Notes: generated by a model not told the origin, from the letters alone. A stretch of 64,000 bases of DNA from an uncultured Candidatus Saccharimonas sp. (GCA_943353165.1 CALRAM010000001.1:173803-237802); one strand, 5' to 3'; shown: positions 30,026 to 62,180, counted from the stretch's first letter. Made by a program: numbers and translations.

Positions 30026-30760
30026 TTAGTAAGGCAATTGGGTGTTTGAAGTAGTATTTGAAGTTATGTTTTTTGTTTTTCGCTTGCGCCGCCTATCTGC
30101 CTCGTTTGTTCCGCCCCATATTCCTTGTATATTGTCGTTATTTAATGCAAACTCTTCGCATTGAACTCTAACTTCACAGTTACTGCATATCACTGCTACG
30201 GCATTAGATATCCATCTAGATGGGGGGAAGAAAAGATTTACATCCATACCTTTACACGCAGCTTTGCCGACAAACTCAGAAATCTGCGGGCCTTTCATCT
30301 GATAATCTCGTTTGTTAGAGCTATTAGGACCAAAATTAATTTCATTTAAGTGATTCTCTGTTCTGTATCGCTTGTCTTCACGACTAATAGCAATGTTGCA
30401 AAAATTTAGCAAATCTTTTTGGGGCAATAACAAATTATAGGAGCCTGCATCTGTCTGTTGTTGCACTATACGCATTAACAAGTTAATGTCTTTTACGTCA
30501 TTTATGGTATTCAATTTTAGCCATTTTCCGTCTAGAGAATCTAGAGATTTTAGCTTTTCTAATAGATTTTCTATTCCCTCAAAATCTATGCGGTTTTCTT
30601 CGGAATGATTTATTTCAAGCGGTTCTAGTAGATCATCCGACACGATAACCAGCTCCATGCCTTCATCCAATTCATCGGTCAAACCAAAATGAACTGGAGC
30701 ATCTTCTAGGTTTTCGATAATATCCAAATGGTACGAATTAATTGTATTTTCTGATGACAT
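30026..30760 (-). CDS. WhiB-like (Wbl) Fe-S transcription factor domain fused to a ~170-aa acidic N-terminal extension
   Basis: The C-terminal ~70 aa carry four Cys (C..x23..CSNCEVRVQC), then the GIWGG turn motif and a basic tail RRRKRKTK. That is the Wbl signature order. Confidence 0.7.
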   Translation of the reverse strand: MSSENTINSYHLDIIENLEDAPVHFGLTDELDEGMELVIVSDDLLEPLEINHSEENRIDFEGIENLLEKLKSLDSLDGKWLKLNTINDVKDINLLMRIVQQQTDAGSYNLLLPQKDLLNFCNIAISREDKRYRTENHLNEINFGPNSSNKRDYQMKGPQISEFVGKAACKGMDVNLFFPPSRWISNAVAVICSNCEVRVQCEEFALNNDNIQGIWGGTNEADRRRKRKTKNITSNTTSNTQLPY

Positions 30761-36081: not shown

Positions 36082-36156
36082 TGGTGATCCCGAGGAGAAT
36101 CGAACTCCTATTGCCAGGATGAGAACCTGGTGTCCTAACCGTTAGACGACGGGACC
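36082..36156 (-). tRNA. tRNA-Glu (anticodon CUC), CCA encoded
   Basis: The reverse complement reads GGTCCCG TC GTCT-AACGGTTA-GGAC A CCAGG-TTCTCAT-CCTGG CAAT AGGAG-TTCGATT-CTCCT CGGGATC A CCA. Confidence 0.93.
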
Positions 36157-46593: not shown

Positions 46594-46992
46594 ACCCAAA
46601 AAAGTACTATTATCAATAGCGAACAAAATACGAACACTTTAGTGCAGGTAAAGTAGCATAGTAGGCAGTTTAATATAGCGTAATTAAACCAAAGAACGTG
46701 GCCGGAAAGAGAAGACAAAAAAATAAAATAAAAATAAATAGCAACTAGGTTAGAAGAATATAAAAATCACAATAGAACACAACACCGACATATACATACT
46801 ACGTCGTACAATGCATATTTTACGACACGCATATAAAGCATAACCTTGATTACCTATAACCCTATCACTAGGGGACAACGTCGTCTAAATGCAATAAGTT
46901 TGGACTGTACGAATAACACTAACTACACTGCGCCTGACTTGTATAGATATAGTGAAATCCCACGTATGGTTGGAAATGGTTTCTCCCGCACA

Positions 46993-47015
46993 TTATCCCC
47001 ACATAGTTATCCACA
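46993..47015 (+). promoter_or_regulatory. Tandem DnaA-box-like 9-mers
   Basis: TTATCCCCA (46993-47001) and TTATCCACA (47007-47015). The latter is identical to the classical TTATCCACA consensus. Both have the same orientation, with starts 14 nt apart. Confidence 0.45.
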
Positions 47016-47352
47016 GCTAGCGTGAAAACTTTTGCTTTTTCACAAATACATACTGTTGTAAGTTTTTAGTCCCTACTACCCTCTTTTAAGGGTATTTGAC
47101 AATTCCCTACTATGCAGTCATACTATGTTTTTTTCTTGGCTAAAGAGCTGTATGTGTTTATGAACATTTTACGAACATGCAAGGGGAGAGTGGGGTGCTT
47201 AATACTTTTTGTCAGCAAAGCATCTAGCACTATCTTTCATTAAGAAGTTAACAGATTTTTTAATTTCACAGAACCGTTCATTATAAACATAAAGCATATA
47301 ATATATCCCCTAGCCTAATGAGGGAAGCTATCAGACTCTTTACTTCCCTACT

Positions 47353-48267
47353 CTACTTGTAATATGAGCGTTCTGGAACCCTAACATCAATATACTCACT
47401 TGGATTAGTGTTTTGTGTCGTAAAACGTTCTCTTATAGCCAAGAAAGTGCCTGTCTGCAATCTTGCATCGCCGTTCATATCAAACTTTATATAGTAGTCC
47501 TTTTCTGTAGTTACAACCCTGAGTTCATTTATTAAGTTTGGTAATTGTAGTGCTTTTATTGAAACATTTTTAGCTTTTAGCTGTAACATGACTGTTGTTA
47601 TAAAGTCTACATAATCTTTTGGTAGCGCCACTTCGCCTTTCTTAATTTCTATCTTGCTATCGTCGACGACAGTCAATAGATACGTAGATAAGCTGGCATT
47701 TGTGTCCCAATAGGATACCAATGCCCTGCCGTCACTGCCTATGATATAACGAGATGTACCACTAGCTAGTATAAATGCCGGTATAGCAGGCTCTAGGCCA
47801 ATAACTGCCTCCCTGCCAACTATTGGTAGTCTGACTGTAGAGTGCTGGATTTCGGGAAACTCTTTTTCTATTTGCTTGGACACACTTTCGGTATTTATTG
47901 TTAACTTTGTTCTATTAAAAATAGAGCTTTCCAAAATCTGTCGGATACGCTGTTCGTAAACTTTTTTGTCTCTAAGCAAATTAGAGCCTGAATTAGATTT
48001 GCCTAGTATTATCCGAGGTCTTATTGTCAAAGTTAATGTGTACAAAACTGAGCCGACAATAACTATTACAATTAAATAACTTGGTATATGTTTTAGATGA
48101 TACTTTAGGTCTACTCTCTTCGAACTTTTTTTGATAGCCTTTGGGTCAGTATTGTTTGCTTGACGGTTAGGTCTATTATTGTAATATGAAAAACCAGGGT
48201 TACTGTTCAGGCGTTGTGAAGAAGATCTATTATTAGAACTAACCTGTTTTTTTTTAAATAGCATCAT
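47353..48267 (-). CDS. ftsQ: Cell division protein FtsQ/DivIB-like (POTRA domain)
   Basis: Disordered basic N-terminus and a single TM helix (YLIVIVIVGSVLYTLTL). The POTRA-like region and its position after murG in the dcw cluster support the call. Confidence 0.65.
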   Translation of the reverse strand: MMLFKKKQVSSNNRSSSQRLNSNPGFSYYNNRPNRQANNTDPKAIKKSSKRVDLKYHLKHIPSYLIVIVIVGSVLYTLTLTIRPRIILGKSNSGSNLLRDKKVYEQRIRQILESSIFNRTKLTINTESVSKQIEKEFPEIQHSTVRLPIVGREAVIGLEPAIPAFILASGTSRYIIGSDGRALVSYWDTNASLSTYLLTVVDDSKIEIKKGEVALPKDYVDFITTVMLQLKAKNVSIKALQLPNLINELRVVTTEKDYYIKFDMNGDARLQTGTFLAIRERFTTQNTNPSEYIDVRVPERSYYK

Positions 48268-49414
48268 TATCCTTGGCTGTATTTATTATAATCTTTGCTA
48301 GCTCCTGTGCAGCCTTTTTCTTTGTTAATGACCTTAGTTCCTTGCCCAAAACTTCCCGAATATTATCATAATCTAGTAGTTGCCTGACAGTCGTGTCCAG
48401 ACCTTTTGTAGGATGTTCAAACTCACTTTCTTGGACAACCTTTACAGAGTGATTTTGCAATAAATAATCCGCATTAACCAGCTGGTGGCCACCGGTTAGA
48501 TCCGGGTTTGGAACTACTACACAAGCTTTTGATTGGATCCCCAGCTCTGCCAAAGTATTTGCGCCAGCCCTTGTTATAACCACATCTGCAGAACCAGTGT
48601 ATTGGTACATGGAGCTCATAAATTCTATCGGCATTACCCTATTGTTTTTCTCTATGTTTCTGTATATTTTTAGGTTTCCCTTTCCAACTTGATGGATTAT
48701 ATAAAGATTTGGGTAATCTAAAAGTAATCTAGGTATTATCTTCATCATTTCCGAGTTAATCCTTTGCGCTCCAATACTACCGCCTGTTACGAGCAAAACT
48801 AACGATTTAACTGGAATTTTTAGTTCCTGACGATAACTATCTTTTAGCTCTTTGGTTACCAATCTATAGTCATCTCCCACTAAAACTCCTATGTATCTAG
48901 TGCTTTCTCTAGGATAGCTATAATACTCTGCAGGCATTGCCGTAGCGTGTACAGACGCCCATCTACTAACCATTCTATTTGCTAAACCTGGTATGGCATC
49001 AGAATCATGGGTAACAAAAGGAACCTTGCACAAAGCCGAAGCCAATCCAACAGGAACTCCAACAAAACCACCTTTTAGGAATACTACATTAGGCTGTAAT
49101 TCCCTGACTATTTTTATAGCCTGACAAATACCTATCAACATAAAAAACATATCACGTATATTTAAGGCTATTGTTCTAAAATCTATTATTCGGTTAAACC
49201 AATTTTCTTTATGATAGCGACGAAATTTTCCGGCATATATAGTCCGAATCTCATCAATTGTTTTGCTGCCCTCCACCATATCCAGAAATTTACCCTTTTT
49301 TTCTCCAACATAAATAATACGGCAATTAGGGTCTAGCTTTTTTAATTTACTTGCGACGGCTAAGATAGGCGTGATGTGTCCGCCCGTTCCCCCGCCGCTG
49401 ACTATAATTGTCAT
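48254..49414 (-). CDS. murG: UDP-GlcNAc:undecaprenyl-PP-MurNAc-pentapeptide GlcNAc transferase
   Basis: SGGGTGGHITP sits at the N-terminus when started at ATG 49414, which has an AAAGGGGA SD; the track ORF extends to 49498. The C-terminal GGS..A..E motif region is present. Confidence 0.88.
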   Translation of the reverse strand: MTIIVSGGGTGGHITPILAVASKLKKLDPNCRIIYVGEKKGKFLDMVEGSKTIDEIRTIYAGKFRRYHKENWFNRIIDFRTIALNIRDMFFMLIGICQAIKIVRELQPNVVFLKGGFVGVPVGLASALCKVPFVTHDSDAIPGLANRMVSRWASVHATAMPAEYYSYPRESTRYIGVLVGDDYRLVTKELKDSYRQELKIPVKSLVLLVTGGSIGAQRINSEMMKIIPRLLLDYPNLYIIHQVGKGNLKIYRNIEKNNRVMPIEFMSSMYQYTGSADVVITRAGANTLAELGIQSKACVVVPNPDLTGGHQLVNADYLLQNHSVKVVQESEFEHPTKGLDTTVRQLLDYDNIREVLGKELRSLTKKKAAQELAKIIINTAKDNDAI

Positions 49415-50591
49415 GACTTCCCCTTTCTGTTGCACTACCATTGTCATATAAAGTATACCGAGATATATTAAAAACCAAACCAACTGCAGCAGTAACAAAT
49501 ACGACGCTTGTACCTCCGTAGCTGAGGAAAGGCAGTGTAATACCTTTTATAGGTAATAGCCCGATCATTGCCCCGATATTTATCATGGTCTGGGCACTTA
49601 GCCAGCCCAAAACTCCTGCAACTAGCAAACGAGTAAAAACGTCAGGTGCCCTAAGCATAATATTTTTTAGTCTGGAAAAAAACAGAATAAAAACAGATAG
49701 AACTGCAATTAATCCTAAAAAACCAAACTTTTCGCCCATTATGGCAAATATTGAATCGTTGGCCGCCTCTGGCAAATATCCATATGCCTGTACATCGTGT
49801 GCAAACCCCTTTCCAAACAACCCGCCAGAACCAACTGCTATTAATGCTTGACATGCTTGATATCCTTCATTTAAACAATCTTTTTGAGGATTAAAAAATG
49901 TTGCAAATCTCTGCCGGCGATACGGCGTACTGGATACCAACAAAAGTACGCCTATGGCACCGATAGCACTAATCATGCCGATTTTTTTAAGCGGTACACC
50001 TGACACAAAACTCATAGATATAGTTATTGCAGCCAGTACGACCGTAGAGCCTAAGTCACTCTGCAGAAATGCAACGGTAAAACCTATAATAACCAATACG
50101 ACCAATATGGGCTGAAGAGTTTTTTTAGAATCTCCCAGCTCCTTATATAAAACACGCCGGTACAGAAATGTAGCCAACCATATTATTAGAGCAAATTTCA
50201 AAAACTCTACAGCCTGAAATGAAAATCCTCCTACTTGTATCCATCGATATGCACCATTTGTCTTTTCTCCTAACAACCTAACTGCAACAACCGATATTCC
50301 TGCTAATACTATTAACTGATTTTGGATATTTTGCCAGAACTTTAATGAAACGTTTGCTGTAAACAAAAAAGAAAATACTCCCAGTAATATAGCTATAAAC
50401 TGTTTGCTGACAAAATAGTTTGCGCTAACATTTTTCTGTACCGCCAAGCCTGGGCTAATTGAATATATCACTACTAGTCCAACGACCAAGAGCGATAAAC
50501 TTAACATCAAAAGAGCATAGTCTGGTTTATGTCTTCTCTGGTTTGACTCTAGTTGTCTTGGCTGTCGCCTATCCACCCTGTCAGAGTTCAT
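49347..50591 (-). CDS. ftsW: SEDS-family peptidoglycan polymerase FtsW
   Basis: Ten-TM SEDS pattern with EFLKFALIIWLA, PEAANDSIFA and LPFLSYGGTS motifs. The 3' end overlaps the murG start by 68 nt. Confidence 0.88.
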   Translation of the reverse strand: MNSDRVDRRQPRQLESNQRRHKPDYALLMLSLSLLVVGLVVIYSISPGLAVQKNVSANYFVSKQFIAILLGVFSFLFTANVSLKFWQNIQNQLIVLAGISVVAVRLLGEKTNGAYRWIQVGGFSFQAVEFLKFALIIWLATFLYRRVLYKELGDSKKTLQPILVVLVIIGFTVAFLQSDLGSTVVLAAITISMSFVSGVPLKKIGMISAIGAIGVLLLVSSTPYRRQRFATFFNPQKDCLNEGYQACQALIAVGSGGLFGKGFAHDVQAYGYLPEAANDSIFAIMGEKFGFLGLIAVLSVFILFFSRLKNIMLRAPDVFTRLLVAGVLGWLSAQTMINIGAMIGLLPIKGITLPFLSYGGTSVVFVTAAVGLVFNISRYTLYDNGSATERGSHDNYSQRRGNGRTHHAYLSRRK

Positions 50592-51660: not shown

Positions 51661-53433
51661 CTAATGCATCTTTGGGGTAACACCATAACTATCTATCAGC
51701 ATATTTGTAAGCTTCAAAAAAATAGGTGCAGCCGCTTTTGCTCCTGCATATCCAGGAATTTTTGGATCATTTACTCTGATAGATATAACATACTGCGGTC
51801 TATCGCCACCTACAAAACCTACATATGTTCCGTTAAATATATTAGTATAGTATCCTCCGTCAGGATTAGCCTCCTGTGCGGTTCCTGTTTTGCCTCCAAT
51901 ATTAAATTCGGGCCTTGGCACATTTGAACTCTGAGAATTATAAGCCCGAAAATTCTTTGTATATGTTTCTATCATATACTCTCTAATTGTGTCGCTAACT
52001 TCCTTCTTTACCACGTTATTACGCACAACTACAGGTTTTGTATCTTTATTTAATCCATTTGGTTCAGTATATTTTTCTATTAAATAAGGTCGATAATAAA
52101 CGCCCCCATTTATAACACTTGAAATTGCTAACCCCAATTGTAGCGGTGTGGCTGTTATTCCTTGTCCAAAACCAGTGTTTGCATACTTGATATTTAATCC
52201 GTATCCATCAGTAGGGCTAGGGACACTACCGGCTGCCTCGTAACCTTGCTCAATTCCTGTTTCTTTTCCATACTGGTAATGATCTACCAAGTAATTATGC
52301 CATGCTATCCTAGCTTTTTCATTAATTTCTCCACCACCCATTTGCATTACCAACCAAGTTGCGCCAGTATTTAGCGAAAGTTGCAATATGTCCTTCATGC
52401 TTCTGGTTGCGGCTCCACCATCTTCTTCTACGTTTACGACTTTAGAGTCCCCTATCACCCAAACACTGGGATCAAAATAGGTCGTGTCTTTGTTTACGAC
52501 CCCTTGATCTAGGGCGGCAGCCAAAGTTAATGGCTTCATGGTCGATCCTATTTCCATAGGAGAGCTAACTATGGCATTGGAGAACACACTTAAGTCCGTA
52601 ACTTTAGAAAAATCACTAGGATTATATGTAGGGTAATTAGCCATAGCTTTGATTGCGCCACTATATGGATCAATTATCACAGCTCCACCAGATTTAGAGC
52701 TTGCTGCTTCTAGTCCCTGTTTTAATATATCCTCCAGTTGTTGTTGCATGCCCAAATCAATTGTCAAAGCTAATTGGCTCCCATTTTTTGGAGATACTAG
52801 TATATTGTCCTGATTACTAGCTAACGGGACTCCTTGTGCGTCTGTTATAGCCTTCAATTTGCCAGGTTTCCCTGTCAATGTTTCATTCAAAGCTTGCTCT
52901 ATACCATACTTCCCTATCCCTTCATCATTCACAAAACCTAACAACTGTGAAGCTAGCTGACCTTGTGGGTATGTTCTCTGTACGGTTTCACGGAAACCGA
53001 TACCTTTAAGCTTTAAACCTTCTAATTTTTGTTTTTGTTCTTTGCTGACTTTTTTGGCCAAAATAGAATACCGAGTATCCTTCTCCATCAACTTTCTTAG
53101 ATCTTCAGGTTTTCCACCTAAAATATCTGAAACTTTAGTAGAAGTTTGTGCTACATCGACTATAAATTTGGGGTCAGCGTAAACTGTAAAAAGCGACTCA
53201 TTTAATACTAACGGCACCAAAACACCACTACTATGTGCGACGATAGTACCCCTCTCTGCTGGAAGTTCGTATTGTTTTAACTGGTCACTCAGCGCTGCTT
53301 TTTGATAATAATCATGCTTGATAATTTGAACATAAAAAAGCCTTACTACAAAAATAGACATTATAAATACTAAAAAAGCGAACCAAGTTTGGATACGCAA
53401 CTTTGGGTTTATTTCTTTTTCTGATGGATTCAT
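51661..53433 (-). CDS. ftsI: Penicillin-binding protein (class B transpeptidase, FtsI-type)
   Basis: N-terminal TM anchor and dimerisation domain. Active-site STMK and KTGTA motifs. Confidence 0.88.
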   Translation of the reverse strand: MNPSEKEINPKLRIQTWFAFLVFIMSIFVVRLFYVQIIKHDYYQKAALSDQLKQYELPAERGTIVAHSSGVLVPLVLNESLFTVYADPKFIVDVAQTSTKVSDILGGKPEDLRKLMEKDTRYSILAKKVSKEQKQKLEGLKLKGIGFRETVQRTYPQGQLASQLLGFVNDEGIGKYGIEQALNETLTGKPGKLKAITDAQGVPLASNQDNILVSPKNGSQLALTIDLGMQQQLEDILKQGLEAASSKSGGAVIIDPYSGAIKAMANYPTYNPSDFSKVTDLSVFSNAIVSSPMEIGSTMKPLTLAAALDQGVVNKDTTYFDPSVWVIGDSKVVNVEEDGGAATRSMKDILQLSLNTGATWLVMQMGGGEINEKARIAWHNYLVDHYQYGKETGIEQGYEAAGSVPSPTDGYGLNIKYANTGFGQGITATPLQLGLAISSVINGGVYYRPYLIEKYTEPNGLNKDTKPVVVRNNVVKKEVSDTIREYMIETYTKNFRAYNSQSSNVPRPEFNIGGKTGTAQEANPDGGYYTNIFNGTYVGFVGGDRPQYVISIRVNDPKIPGYAGAKAAAPIFLKLTNMLIDSYGVTPKMH

Positions 53434-60749: not shown

Positions 60750-62180
60750 CTATTCTAGTTCTTCTATGTGCCTGTATAATCTAGCGATTTCGTCTGGGTT
60801 TTCTCCATAGGAATCATTTAGGTAGACTTCCCTGTCACCACCTTCAAAATTATATTTCACCTCATTCCAGTTTACGGAGCGAACTCTAATAGATCTTTTT
60901 GGAACTACATTTCGCAAGCATCTGATAATTTCGCCGCGTAGTTCGGCACGGCCTTTTGGCGGATTTTTTACTAAATGAGGGGCTAGGCTAATGGCGTCTA
61001 GTGGATCATCGAAATGCCCCAATTTTCGTAGTTTTATGGCTATACCGTTATAGTTTAGGTCTCCCCACATTCTGTCGATTGCGCGGGCATGGACATAATC
61101 AGTCGTTGAACCCGTTCGGGATTTTGCTGATTTTATGATGTGATCCTTGGCTATCCAATCAACCTTGTTTTTCAAAAATTCCTTATCCTTGGGGCTGTCA
61201 ACTAAATGTTCGGCTGCAGCGTACCATTCGTTAGCCATTATTTTCTCGTCTTCAGGGACGGATACCGTTTCTATGAACTCCAGTGCCAGCTCGGCTAATG
61301 CTAGCTGCACCTCGGCCGAGCGAATCTTTACCCCACTATCTAGCTCGACCAGCTTGGACAGTTTATTGTCTTTTGCCACACTCACTGTTACATTTGCAGG
61401 CCTGTATAGTTTTAAGTCATTCATGTTTACACCATGTTCCATCATTCGCAGAACCAACGAAGTCGACGCAATCTTGTAGGCGGATGACCATGGAATCATA
61501 TTTGGATCTCCAGAAACTATATGTAGTCTTCGAAAATTGTTATTACTAGAAAAACTTTCGTCACGTGTATTGATATGCGGCTTGCTGATACTGCTTGTAG
61601 TCGTAGAACTGATGGGTGTTTTTACGTGTTGAGCTTTTTGAGCTACAAAATATTTACCGGTTCTGCACTCCACATGTCCAGCTCCTGATAAAATCATTCT
61701 AGTGGATAGGTGCGTAATCAACCCGTTCCAATGATCAGAATAACCATCCCAACTTTCTGATTTTTCTGGATTTATGCGTTCTAATGTTTGATAATTCTCG
61801 TGGACACCCCAGCTGATTTTTGGATCATCTCCAATAACTCTGTTGTTGAGCCTAAAATGTTGTTGTTCCAATTTACCGCCATGCAAATCTACGATTTCGG
61901 ACATTATGATTTCCCCAGCGATAACAGCCGCAACTGTCTCTCTAATGGTCTGACACTCTGGTGTCGCATACTCTGGATGATTGCCAGAATCTACATATAT
62001 CCTTGACCCATTCTGGGAAAACTGTTGAATAGTGCCCAGTTTTTTAGTCATTCTGCGACCCTCAAACAATTCGTAGATTGGTTGCTCGTACGGATTAATC
62101 TCTAGCTCTGATTCAATGCCGTAAATTCTACGTACAGGTTCAATCTCTGGACAATCAGAATAAAAATTCAACGAGGACAT
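60750..62180 (-). CDS. Pup-ligase/deamidase-family protein (PafA/Dop homolog)
   Basis: RRIYGIESELE and NGSRIYVDSGNHPEYATPEC(Q) match the N-terminal carboxylate-amine-ligase core of PafA/Dop. The 476-aa length is typical of the family. Confidence 0.7.
   Translation of the reverse strand: MSSLNFYSDCPEIEPVRRIYGIESELEINPYEQPIYELFEGRRMTKKLGTIQQFSQNGSRIYVDSGNHPEYATPECQTIRETVAAVIAGEIIMSEIVDLHGGKLEQQHFRLNNRVIGDDPKISWGVHENYQTLERINPEKSESWDGYSDHWNGLITHLSTRMILSGAGHVECRTGKYFVAQKAQHVKTPISSTTTSSISKPHINTRDESFSSNNNFRRLHIVSGDPNMIPWSSAYKIASTSLVLRMMEHGVNMNDLKLYRPANVTVSVAKDNKLSKLVELDSGVKIRSAEVQLALAELALEFIETVSVPEDEKIMANEWYAAAEHLVDSPKDKEFLKNKVDWIAKDHIIKSAKSRTGSTTDYVHARAIDRMWGDLNYNGIAIKLRKLGHFDDPLDAISLAPHLVKNPPKGRAELRGEIIRCLRNVVPKRSIRVRSVNWNEVKYNFEGGDREVYLNDSYGENPDEIARLYRHIEELE

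Follow-up and report, generated by a model that had tools for sequence, protein, structure and literature searches.

The 64,000 nucleotides of an uncultured Candidatus Saccharimonas sp. (Saccharimonadales; TM7, Patescibacteria) analysed here, in the following called the window, contain a 759-bp gap (46594-47352) on which the coding sequences of the two strands converge. In this gap lies a 28-bp near-palindrome, at 46801-46828, which probably is the dif site of the chromosome, i.e. the target of an Xer-family tyrosine recombinase for the resolution of chromosome dimers. An earlier reading of the same DNA, made from the sequence alone, had found no dif-like XerC/D site by eye; a dif-like site is present and was missed. 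It is an element of a known kind, in a lineage, Saccharibacteria, for which we found no description of a dif site in the literature.

The comparison uses 246 fetched loci; for fetching relatives, the gene on the left flank, coding for a protein of 345 amino acids (aa), served as anchor. It comprises a 74-species alignment of the gap, a 79-species consensus of the site, a 40-species alignment of the module to the right of it and 102 loci for the spacing of motifs. The coordinates of all features are given in Table 1.

A dif site is defined by two inverted recombinase-binding arms and a central region of 6-8 bp, and both are found at 46801-46828, where the central region has 6 bp. The 9-bp arm cores, GTCGTACAA and TTTTACGAC on the two sides of TGCATA, are inverted copies of each other that differ at one strictly conserved position: the common form is GTCG[C/T]A[C/A]AA, and the asymmetric position is C in one arm and A in the other. 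Five of the six inner pairs are complementary, more than the criterion of Kono et al. (PMC3025954) requires. The consensus of the 79 species is A[CT]GTCGCACAA TGTATA TTTTGCGAC, with each position conserved to 73-99%. Most relatives thus have the TGTATA spacer of E. coli, where the window has TGCATA. Counting the spacer and the eight left-arm bases next to it, this consensus agrees with E. coli dif in 12 of 14 positions, while the right arm diverges. The variable arm positions show no stem covariation among the 79 species, and hence the palindrome behaves as a protein-binding site and not as a hairpin. Allowing up to three mismatches, the window holds a single copy (0.13 expected).

The site is deeply conserved. 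Of about 83 Saccharimonadales loci from relatives, 79 were found to have it as a single copy, at the same place and in the same orientation, and a metagenome scan with the 24-mer added at least 120 further contigs with one site each. Wherever it was found there is a single copy per locus; the extra copies are hybrid sites at prophage ends. From these sequences the motif GTCG[CT]ACAA-N6-TTTT[AG]CGAC can be defined as the dif motif of Saccharibacteria and, apparently, of Patescibacteria more widely. Relatives with 65-75% identity in the flanking protein also have the two flanking genes in convergent orientation, around an interval without genes that measures 0.76-1.0 kb or more. The alignment of this interval over 74 species consists of short blocks of 90-100% identity between unalignable DNA, with no codon (3-nt) periodicity and with indels of arbitrary length, which is the signature of protein-binding DNA and not of a decayed gene.

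Related species show the site in use. When viral contigs were scanned with the 24-mer, 23 contigs matched. In many of them the site has the FtsQ-position gene (the right neighbour of the gap in the window) and murG to one side, and to the other a block of about 5.4 kb with a Zot/pI-type ATPase, a rolling-circle Rep of the G2P family and small proteins, which is the gene set of a filamentous phage (inovirus). No integrase gene is found in the inserted blocks of these related Saccharibacteria, so a host enzyme must act. The block is closed by a second site, a hybrid in direct orientation, with the left arm and spacer in common and a foreign right arm. The same direct-repeat structure is seen in loci L105, L113, L116 and L118.

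Within one species, with an identical FtsQ-position protein, both states of the locus can be compared. L121, L125 and L126 are empty, and L122 and L124 are occupied by inserts of 5.1-5.3 kb that code for Zot and a rolling-circle Rep and lack an integrase. The empty allele reads ...tgtcaagg[GTCGCACAATATATCTTTTACGAC]atcatatat..., whereas in L122 the left attachment site (attL) reads ...tgtcaagg[GTCGCACAATATATCTTGTTTATT]... and the right one (attR) reads ...caagatgt[GTCGTACAATATATCTTTTACGAC]atcatatat.... Thus attL consists of the host left flank, the left arm, the spacer and then a foreign right arm, and attR is a full site. By blastn there is an overlap of 17 bp at the junctions, which fall within this shared core, and a one-base C-to-T difference in the phage-derived left arm of L122 places the crossover at the spacer. 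L124 carries a second element type, with only the arm and spacer in common. Strand exchange at the central region is therefore seen in one related species, and an integrase-less element between dif and a direct hybrid repeat, the arrangement of integrative mobile elements exploiting Xer (IMEX), in L105, L113, L116, L118, L122 and L124. A search for a free phage genome with a variant of the phage attachment site (attP) returned integrated copies only, and the two small open reading frames (ORFs) beside the L122 attachment sites are unrelated to each other.

Two further loci show traces of such elements. In L123 prophage genes are missing, but the DNA to the left of dif (L123:10250-10330) resembles the phage end at the L122 attR, and L119:3200-8700 holds apparent tandem or remnant elements beside dif. 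Both patterns suggest repeated integration and excision. The window itself has no insert at dif, and its own species shows only a variable patch: strains L002 and L009 differ from the window at 20 positions within 172 bp (46643-46814), the last of these differences falls within the central region of dif and none follows in the next 1.7 kb or so. It looks as if an exchange had stopped at the crossover point.

A recombinase gene adjoins the site in another lineage. In 11 loci of a Shapirobacteria-type lineage, an identical 24-mer lies 285-960 bp upstream of a gene for a tyrosine recombinase of about 310 aa, the homologues of which are named Candidatus Shapirobacteria or Patescibacteria group. 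These proteins score 216-229 bits with the NCBIfam model of archaeal XerA (cutoff 220), compared with 242-260 bits for XerC (cutoff 335) and 239-254 bits for XerD (cutoff 330), also from NCBIfam, and 126-131 bits for XerS (cutoff 267). Their best solved structures in PDB are E. coli XerD and then archaeal XerA. The near-identical arms indicate that the system probably uses one recombinase and, taken together with the linkage of site and gene, suggest a single-recombinase system. Its nearest likeness is probably archaeal XerA or one of the bacterial systems with a single Xer, and not the XerC/XerD pair. The organism of the window would then encode a cognate Xer recombinase. In L248 (at 9614), L250 (at 9311) and L165 (at 1467), all of the Shapirobacteria type, the dif motif lies between pta and the Xer-family gene and adjoins gyrA/gyrB.

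The dif assignment and the polarity of the genes together lead to the reading of the locus as a replication terminus. Genes converge on the motif in three lineages with unrelated neighbours, and in the relatives 93% of the coding sites on the left flank and 97.5% on the right flank point at it. To our knowledge, all systems studied to date have dif in the terminus region. Further, the GC skew of the plus strand changes across the site from -0.019 to -0.112 in the window. A drop is seen in 70% of 47 relatives, and in three Shapirobacteria-type loci the skew goes from between +0.19 and +0.34 on the left to about 0 on the right. The sequence-only reading had offered the terminus as one of its interpretations. 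Its convergent genes now have a dif site between them, and the skew check that it proposed gives a drop without a cumulative extremum in the window. For this reason the terminus is something that we infer, and the locus is best described as a likely terminus landmark. Skews at codon positions and four-fold sites scatter more from gene to gene than between strands, both in the window and in the 47 relatives. The attempt to separate replication skew from coding-strand skew at four-fold sites was dominated by this scatter and gave conflicting signs for GC and AT, and these skews are therefore not used as proof.

In the proposed mechanism, recombinase molecules would bind each of the two near-identical arms, sister sites would synapse, and strands would be exchanged at the borders of the central region. 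In this way chromosome dimers would be resolved at the end of replication, and the integrase-less filamentous phages would exploit the same Xer reaction to integrate.

Several observations weigh against the assignment. The site is identical to the reference dif sites at only 16 of 28 positions, a modest similarity to canonical XerCD dif, and a position weight matrix from three reference sites, which is crude, ranks it 29th of 127,946 window positions (z about 3.6). A canonical matrix scan thus does not single it out, and on sequence alone the case is weak. No recombinase or ftsK gene lies within the 64-kb window, and the evidence from phage insertion and recombinase linkage comes from relatives and not from the window's own species. 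Among metagenome loci with enough flank, a neighbour from the division and cell wall (dcw) cluster stands beside the site in only about 60%. The cumulative GC skew falls throughout the window and merely steepens at the gap, with no maximum. Neither is there a change of sign from plus to minus: in the window and in most relatives the left side has no positive skew, and in the Shapirobacteria-type loci the skew on the right is about 0. At four-fold sites the GC skew is unequal on the two presumed leading strands (-0.31 and -0.04 pooled, -0.25 and -0.07 in the window). In two closed chromosomes the site is located at 47.6% of the record (OY970322.1, near 523.6 kb of 1,099,440 bp) and at 4.5% (OY969576.1, near 85.3 kb of 1,901,429 bp), which is uninformative without the position of dnaA. 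A homologue search for closed oral genomes gave a single, heavily sampled species, with contigs of at most 373 kb.

The likeness to known systems is partial in each case. With the 28-bp XerCD/dif of E. coli and B. subtilis (11-6-11) the site shares inverted arms, the 6-bp centre, the TGTATA spacer of most relatives, comparable inner arm bases (CACAA/TTTTG here, CATAA/TTATG there), the one copy found, the convergence of genes and the use by integrase-less filamentous phages. It differs in an outer right arm that mirrors the left arm instead of following the conserved XerD arm TTATGTTAAAT, in its overall identity, and in linked Shapirobacteria-type recombinases that are far below the XerC and XerD cutoffs. 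Linkage of site and gene is known for XerS/difSL of streptococci and XerH/difH of Helicobacter, and difSL has a longer, asymmetric layout. These systems resemble ours in having one Xer-type enzyme, which is proposed here, and in the linkage seen in the Shapirobacteria-type lineage; unlike them, the Saccharimonadales site follows the dcw cluster and not a recombinase gene, and the XerS score is low.

Archaeal dif sites, as known from Thermococcales and Sulfolobales, have 14-18 of 28 positions in common with the bacterial consensus (PMC2958812), a range that includes the value found here. They also have nearly symmetrical arms and conserved flanks, and in Sulfolobales dif lies close to xerA, as it does in the Shapirobacteria-type loci (PMC2958812). 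The Patescibacteria recombinases are at or near the cutoff of the XerA model. The archaeal systems use a single recombinase, whereas a single enzyme is only proposed here, and they differ from a bacterial lineage with a dcw cluster and other flanking motifs. The inserts resemble the IMEX CTXphi, VGJphi and TLCphi of Vibrio (PMC9226527, PMC6744903): phage genomes with Zot/pI and Rep but without integrase lie at dif, flanked by a full and a hybrid site that have one arm and the central region in common, and as in attP of the TLCphi type the second arm of the phage site is degenerate or missing. The hosts here are Patescibacteria and the recombinase is probably single, unlike in Vibrio.

Table 1. 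Positions of the dif-like site, the other elements of the gap and the two flanking genes in the window.
Feature	Position	Strand	Remarks
Sigma70_r4 + HARE-HTH protein, 345 aa	45556..46593	+	left flanking gene; Pfam
R1 repeat GAACAAAATACGAACA	46621..46636	+	28 nt past the stop of the HARE-HTH gene; CGAACA half at least 90% conserved
24-nt pure A/T tract	46717..46740		moderately conserved as A-rich stretch; dif lies between it and the DnaA-like box
Conserved left flank of dif, consensus CATAGACA + 3-4 nt	46790..46800	+	70-90% column conservation, 74-79 species
dif-like Xer site, 28-bp near-palindrome	46801..46828	+	ACGTCGTACAA TGCATA TTTTACGACAC
Left arm of dif-like site	46801..46811	+	ACGTCGTACAA
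24-bp core of dif-like site	46803..46826	+	
Central region of dif-like site	46812..46817	+	TGCATA
Right arm of dif-like site	46818..46828	+	TTTTACGACAC
Conserved block right of dif, CTTGAT .. TATAA .. AGGGG	46843..46875	+	sub-motifs 80-99% conserved, 74 species
DnaA-box-like pair	46993..47015	+	weak TTATCCCCA (46993-47001), 50-70% conserved; invariant TTATCCACA (47007-47015)
Block CGTGAAAAC .. TTTGCTTTTTC after the box	47020..47041	+	70-99% conserved
Promoter-like element: TTTGACA, CCCTACT-containing spacer, TAnTAT, T-run	47095..47133	+	aimed at 3' end of FtsQ-position gene
R2 repeat TGAACATTTTACGAACA (hexamer-N5-hexamer; TGAACA-N5-CGAACA)	47161..47177	+	GAACA and CGAAC invariant
G-rich stretch after R2	47183..47197		
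FtsQ-position protein, 304 aa	47353..48267	-	right flanking gene, last of dcw cluster; order after murG, ftsW, mraY, ftsI

The remainder of the gap is not empty. The sequence-only reading had listed the pair of DnaA-box-like 9-mers, the pure A/T tract, a promoter-like TTGACA-17-CATACT (47096-47124) and three copies of TCCCTACT (47070, 47104, 47345), and all of them are found where it put them. Most of these motifs are unremarkable within one sequence, since their counts are near chance. There are 21 DnaA-like 9-mers in the window where 17.6 are expected, i.e. no window-wide enrichment, and 6 promoter-like matches where shuffles give 5.4. TCCCTACT has three of its four window copies in the gap (1.3 expected window-wide), two of which are not conserved in relatives.

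It is the relatives that show which motifs are real. TT[AT]TCCACA is invariant in the 40 aligned species, and 78 of the 102 loci carry it on the same strand as dif, at +185 to +300 bp. R2 is found in 81 of them, at a constant distance of about 157 bp from the box. In about 80% of the 102 Saccharibacteria loci the order and orientation of the whole module are fixed: box, CGTGAAAAC/TTTGCTTTTTC, CCCTACT repeats, promoter-like element and R2. Judged by this conservation, the DnaA-type box is a real selected element, namely a single site in a promoter-like context beside dif and not an origin. It resembles datA, DARS and DnaA-regulated promoters in being an isolated, strictly conserved DnaA box outside oriC and upstream of a promoter-like element, but there is no cluster of boxes here; this is a resemblance only, and DnaA binding is putative. 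We know of no described counterpart of a DnaA box beside dif at the end of a division cluster.

The only other perfect copy of R1 in the 64 kb is R2, and in the distant clade of L121 R1 is inverted. Opposed Ter-like fork traps were considered for R1 and R2 and rejected, as the two are direct repeats in the window's clade. A LexA box was rejected because the repeats are direct, GAAC-N7-GAAC, and not GAAC-N4-GTTC. No DnaA-trio unwinding element follows the box.

Could the gap mainly be an unannotated transcription unit, in which a promoter at about 47095-47133 gives a small or antisense RNA that runs into the last dcw gene? We regard this as possible but somewhat doubtful; it would be compatible with a dif site. 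Neither the TTTGAC nor the -10-like TAT..T varies among 40 species, the AT-rich, distant clade has a perfect TTGACT-17-TATAAT at the equivalent position, antisense to the FtsQ-position gene, and the spacing from box to R2 is fixed, with CCCTACT repeats around the -35. However, in the window's clade the -35 and -10 are 19-22 nt apart, which makes this a putative promoter, and conservation ends about 70 nt downstream; neither a conserved ORF nor a conserved terminator is seen. Putative peptides after a GGGGAG motif are not conserved. Searches of the window, the gap and three related loci against Rfam, at gathering and permissive thresholds, gave only three tRNAs elsewhere and two chance-level matches. 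Folding of both strands of the conserved part and of the part downstream of the promoter is no better than for shuffles (z = +0.37, -0.17 and -0.22), and the conserved blocks are invariant and do not covary. Of the unannotated RNA or element that the sequence-only reading had allowed for, a conserved promoter-like module stands, while neither a structured RNA nor a decayed gene was detected.

Another explanation is that the palindrome has no part in dimer resolution: it would be an attachment site of mobile elements and nothing more, or else a conserved dimeric regulator would have its operator there, which phages happen to target. The direct evidence of use is indeed the integration of mobile elements, the likeness to canonical dif is modest and there is no skew extremum. 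Against this, the elements lack an integrase and need a host enzyme, and purifying selection, which keeps the site in about 80 prophage-free species, speaks for a role in the host. A recombinase gene of the housekeeping, Xer-family type adjoins it in the other lineage. Finally, both neighbours end at the gap, so there is no gene for an operator to regulate. We therefore think this unlikely and retain the dif assignment.

The sequence-only reading had also weighed an origin of replication, where DnaA would bind the TTATCCACA boxes and open the nearby A/T tract. One box matches the consensus perfectly and is invariant in relatives, and 14 bp upstream of it lies a copy with one mismatch. There is also the 24-nt A/T tract, and several conserved non-coding motifs extend over about 580 bp. 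Yet there are only two boxes in 759 bp, one of them weakly conserved, their density in the window is at chance level, and the tract is 270 bp away from the box, only moderately conserved, with dif, a probable dimer-resolution site that phages use in relatives, in between. Genes converge on the gap instead of diverging from it, and the GC skew across it falls and does not rise. As the sequence-only reading had noted, neither dnaA nor dnaN is in the 64-kb window; nor do the 246 fetched loci have either gene at 10 kb or less from the homologous site, and a search with E. coli DnaA gave no match in the metagenome loci or in 1.9 Mb of sequence from fetched loci. In a closed Saccharibacteria genome the origin lies between dnaN and dnaA, with bidirectional replication (PMC6031116). 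An origin in the gap is thus very improbable. A decayed gene, which the size of the gap in a compact genome might suggest, is hardly credible either, given that seven ORFs of 31-59 aa have no Pfam match at E-values up to 1, that short blocks are conserved without periodicity and with arbitrary indels, and that the gap stays gene-free in about 80 species.

The description of the gap as ORF-free and at a convergent strand switch is borne out: its longest ORF has only 59 aa, with a TTG start, and none reaches 60 aa. That everything on its left is on the plus strand is true for coding sequences, the sole exception being a tRNA-Glu on the minus strand (36082-36156). It is the largest gap only if ORFs of 60-99 aa in two other intervals of about 790 bp are counted as genes. 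On the left, der, pth, dprA, topA and the Sigma70_r4 + HARE-HTH gene are on the plus strand. The last codes for a protein that has more than 8000 homologues, named Saccharimonadales, with about 70% identity across the order, and identical copies in many metagenome contigs and in GCA_964805395.1. Such conservation is unusually high for a protein without an assigned function.

On the right the dcw cluster runs on the minus strand, with mraZ, rsmH, ftsI, mraY, ftsW, murG and the FtsQ-position gene. The product of the latter has no Pfam match and no sequence match in PDB. It is only 20-30% identical between Saccharibacteria clades, and its gene still adjoins dif in distant Saccharibacteria. The ORF-based call of murG (48254-49498, minus strand, 414 aa) starts at a TTG and overlaps ftsW (49347-50591, minus strand) by about 150 nt; public gene calls give 341 aa, and the long start is therefore probably wrong. 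About 6 kb to the right of the gap (window about 51750-52750), loci L002-L005 of the same species have the penicillin-binding protein gene ftsI as a piece of about 104 aa and a stretch of about 830 bp. It is intact in the window (590 aa), and the break is an assembly gap or a real deletion. The window further codes for a Pup-ligase family protein (60750-62180, minus strand, E-value 5e-76) and a WhiB-domain protein of 244 aa (30026-30760, minus strand), two families that are typical of Actinobacteria and here are found in a Saccharimonadales genome.

The defined dif motif gives a one-line landmark for orienting and checking metagenome-assembled genomes, for placing the terminus and for reading peak-to-trough data on replication rates. 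It explains where filamentous prophages insert in host-associated TM7, and these prophages must rely on a host recombinase. It also suggests that a bacterial superphylum uses a single recombinase similar to XerA, and it provides the genetic tools under construction for these epibionts with a conserved integration site that exists in nature. The invariant DnaA-type box and promoter-like element at the end of the division cluster pose a concrete, testable question. As a speculation to which we give little weight, the locus might be a composite terminus control region of Saccharibacteria, in which a XerA-like dif is combined with a DnaA-box-gated promoter antisense to the last dcw gene and with response-regulator sites at the R repeats. 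If this were true, the initiator, or the replication status, would have a direct link to cell division or to Xer recombination.

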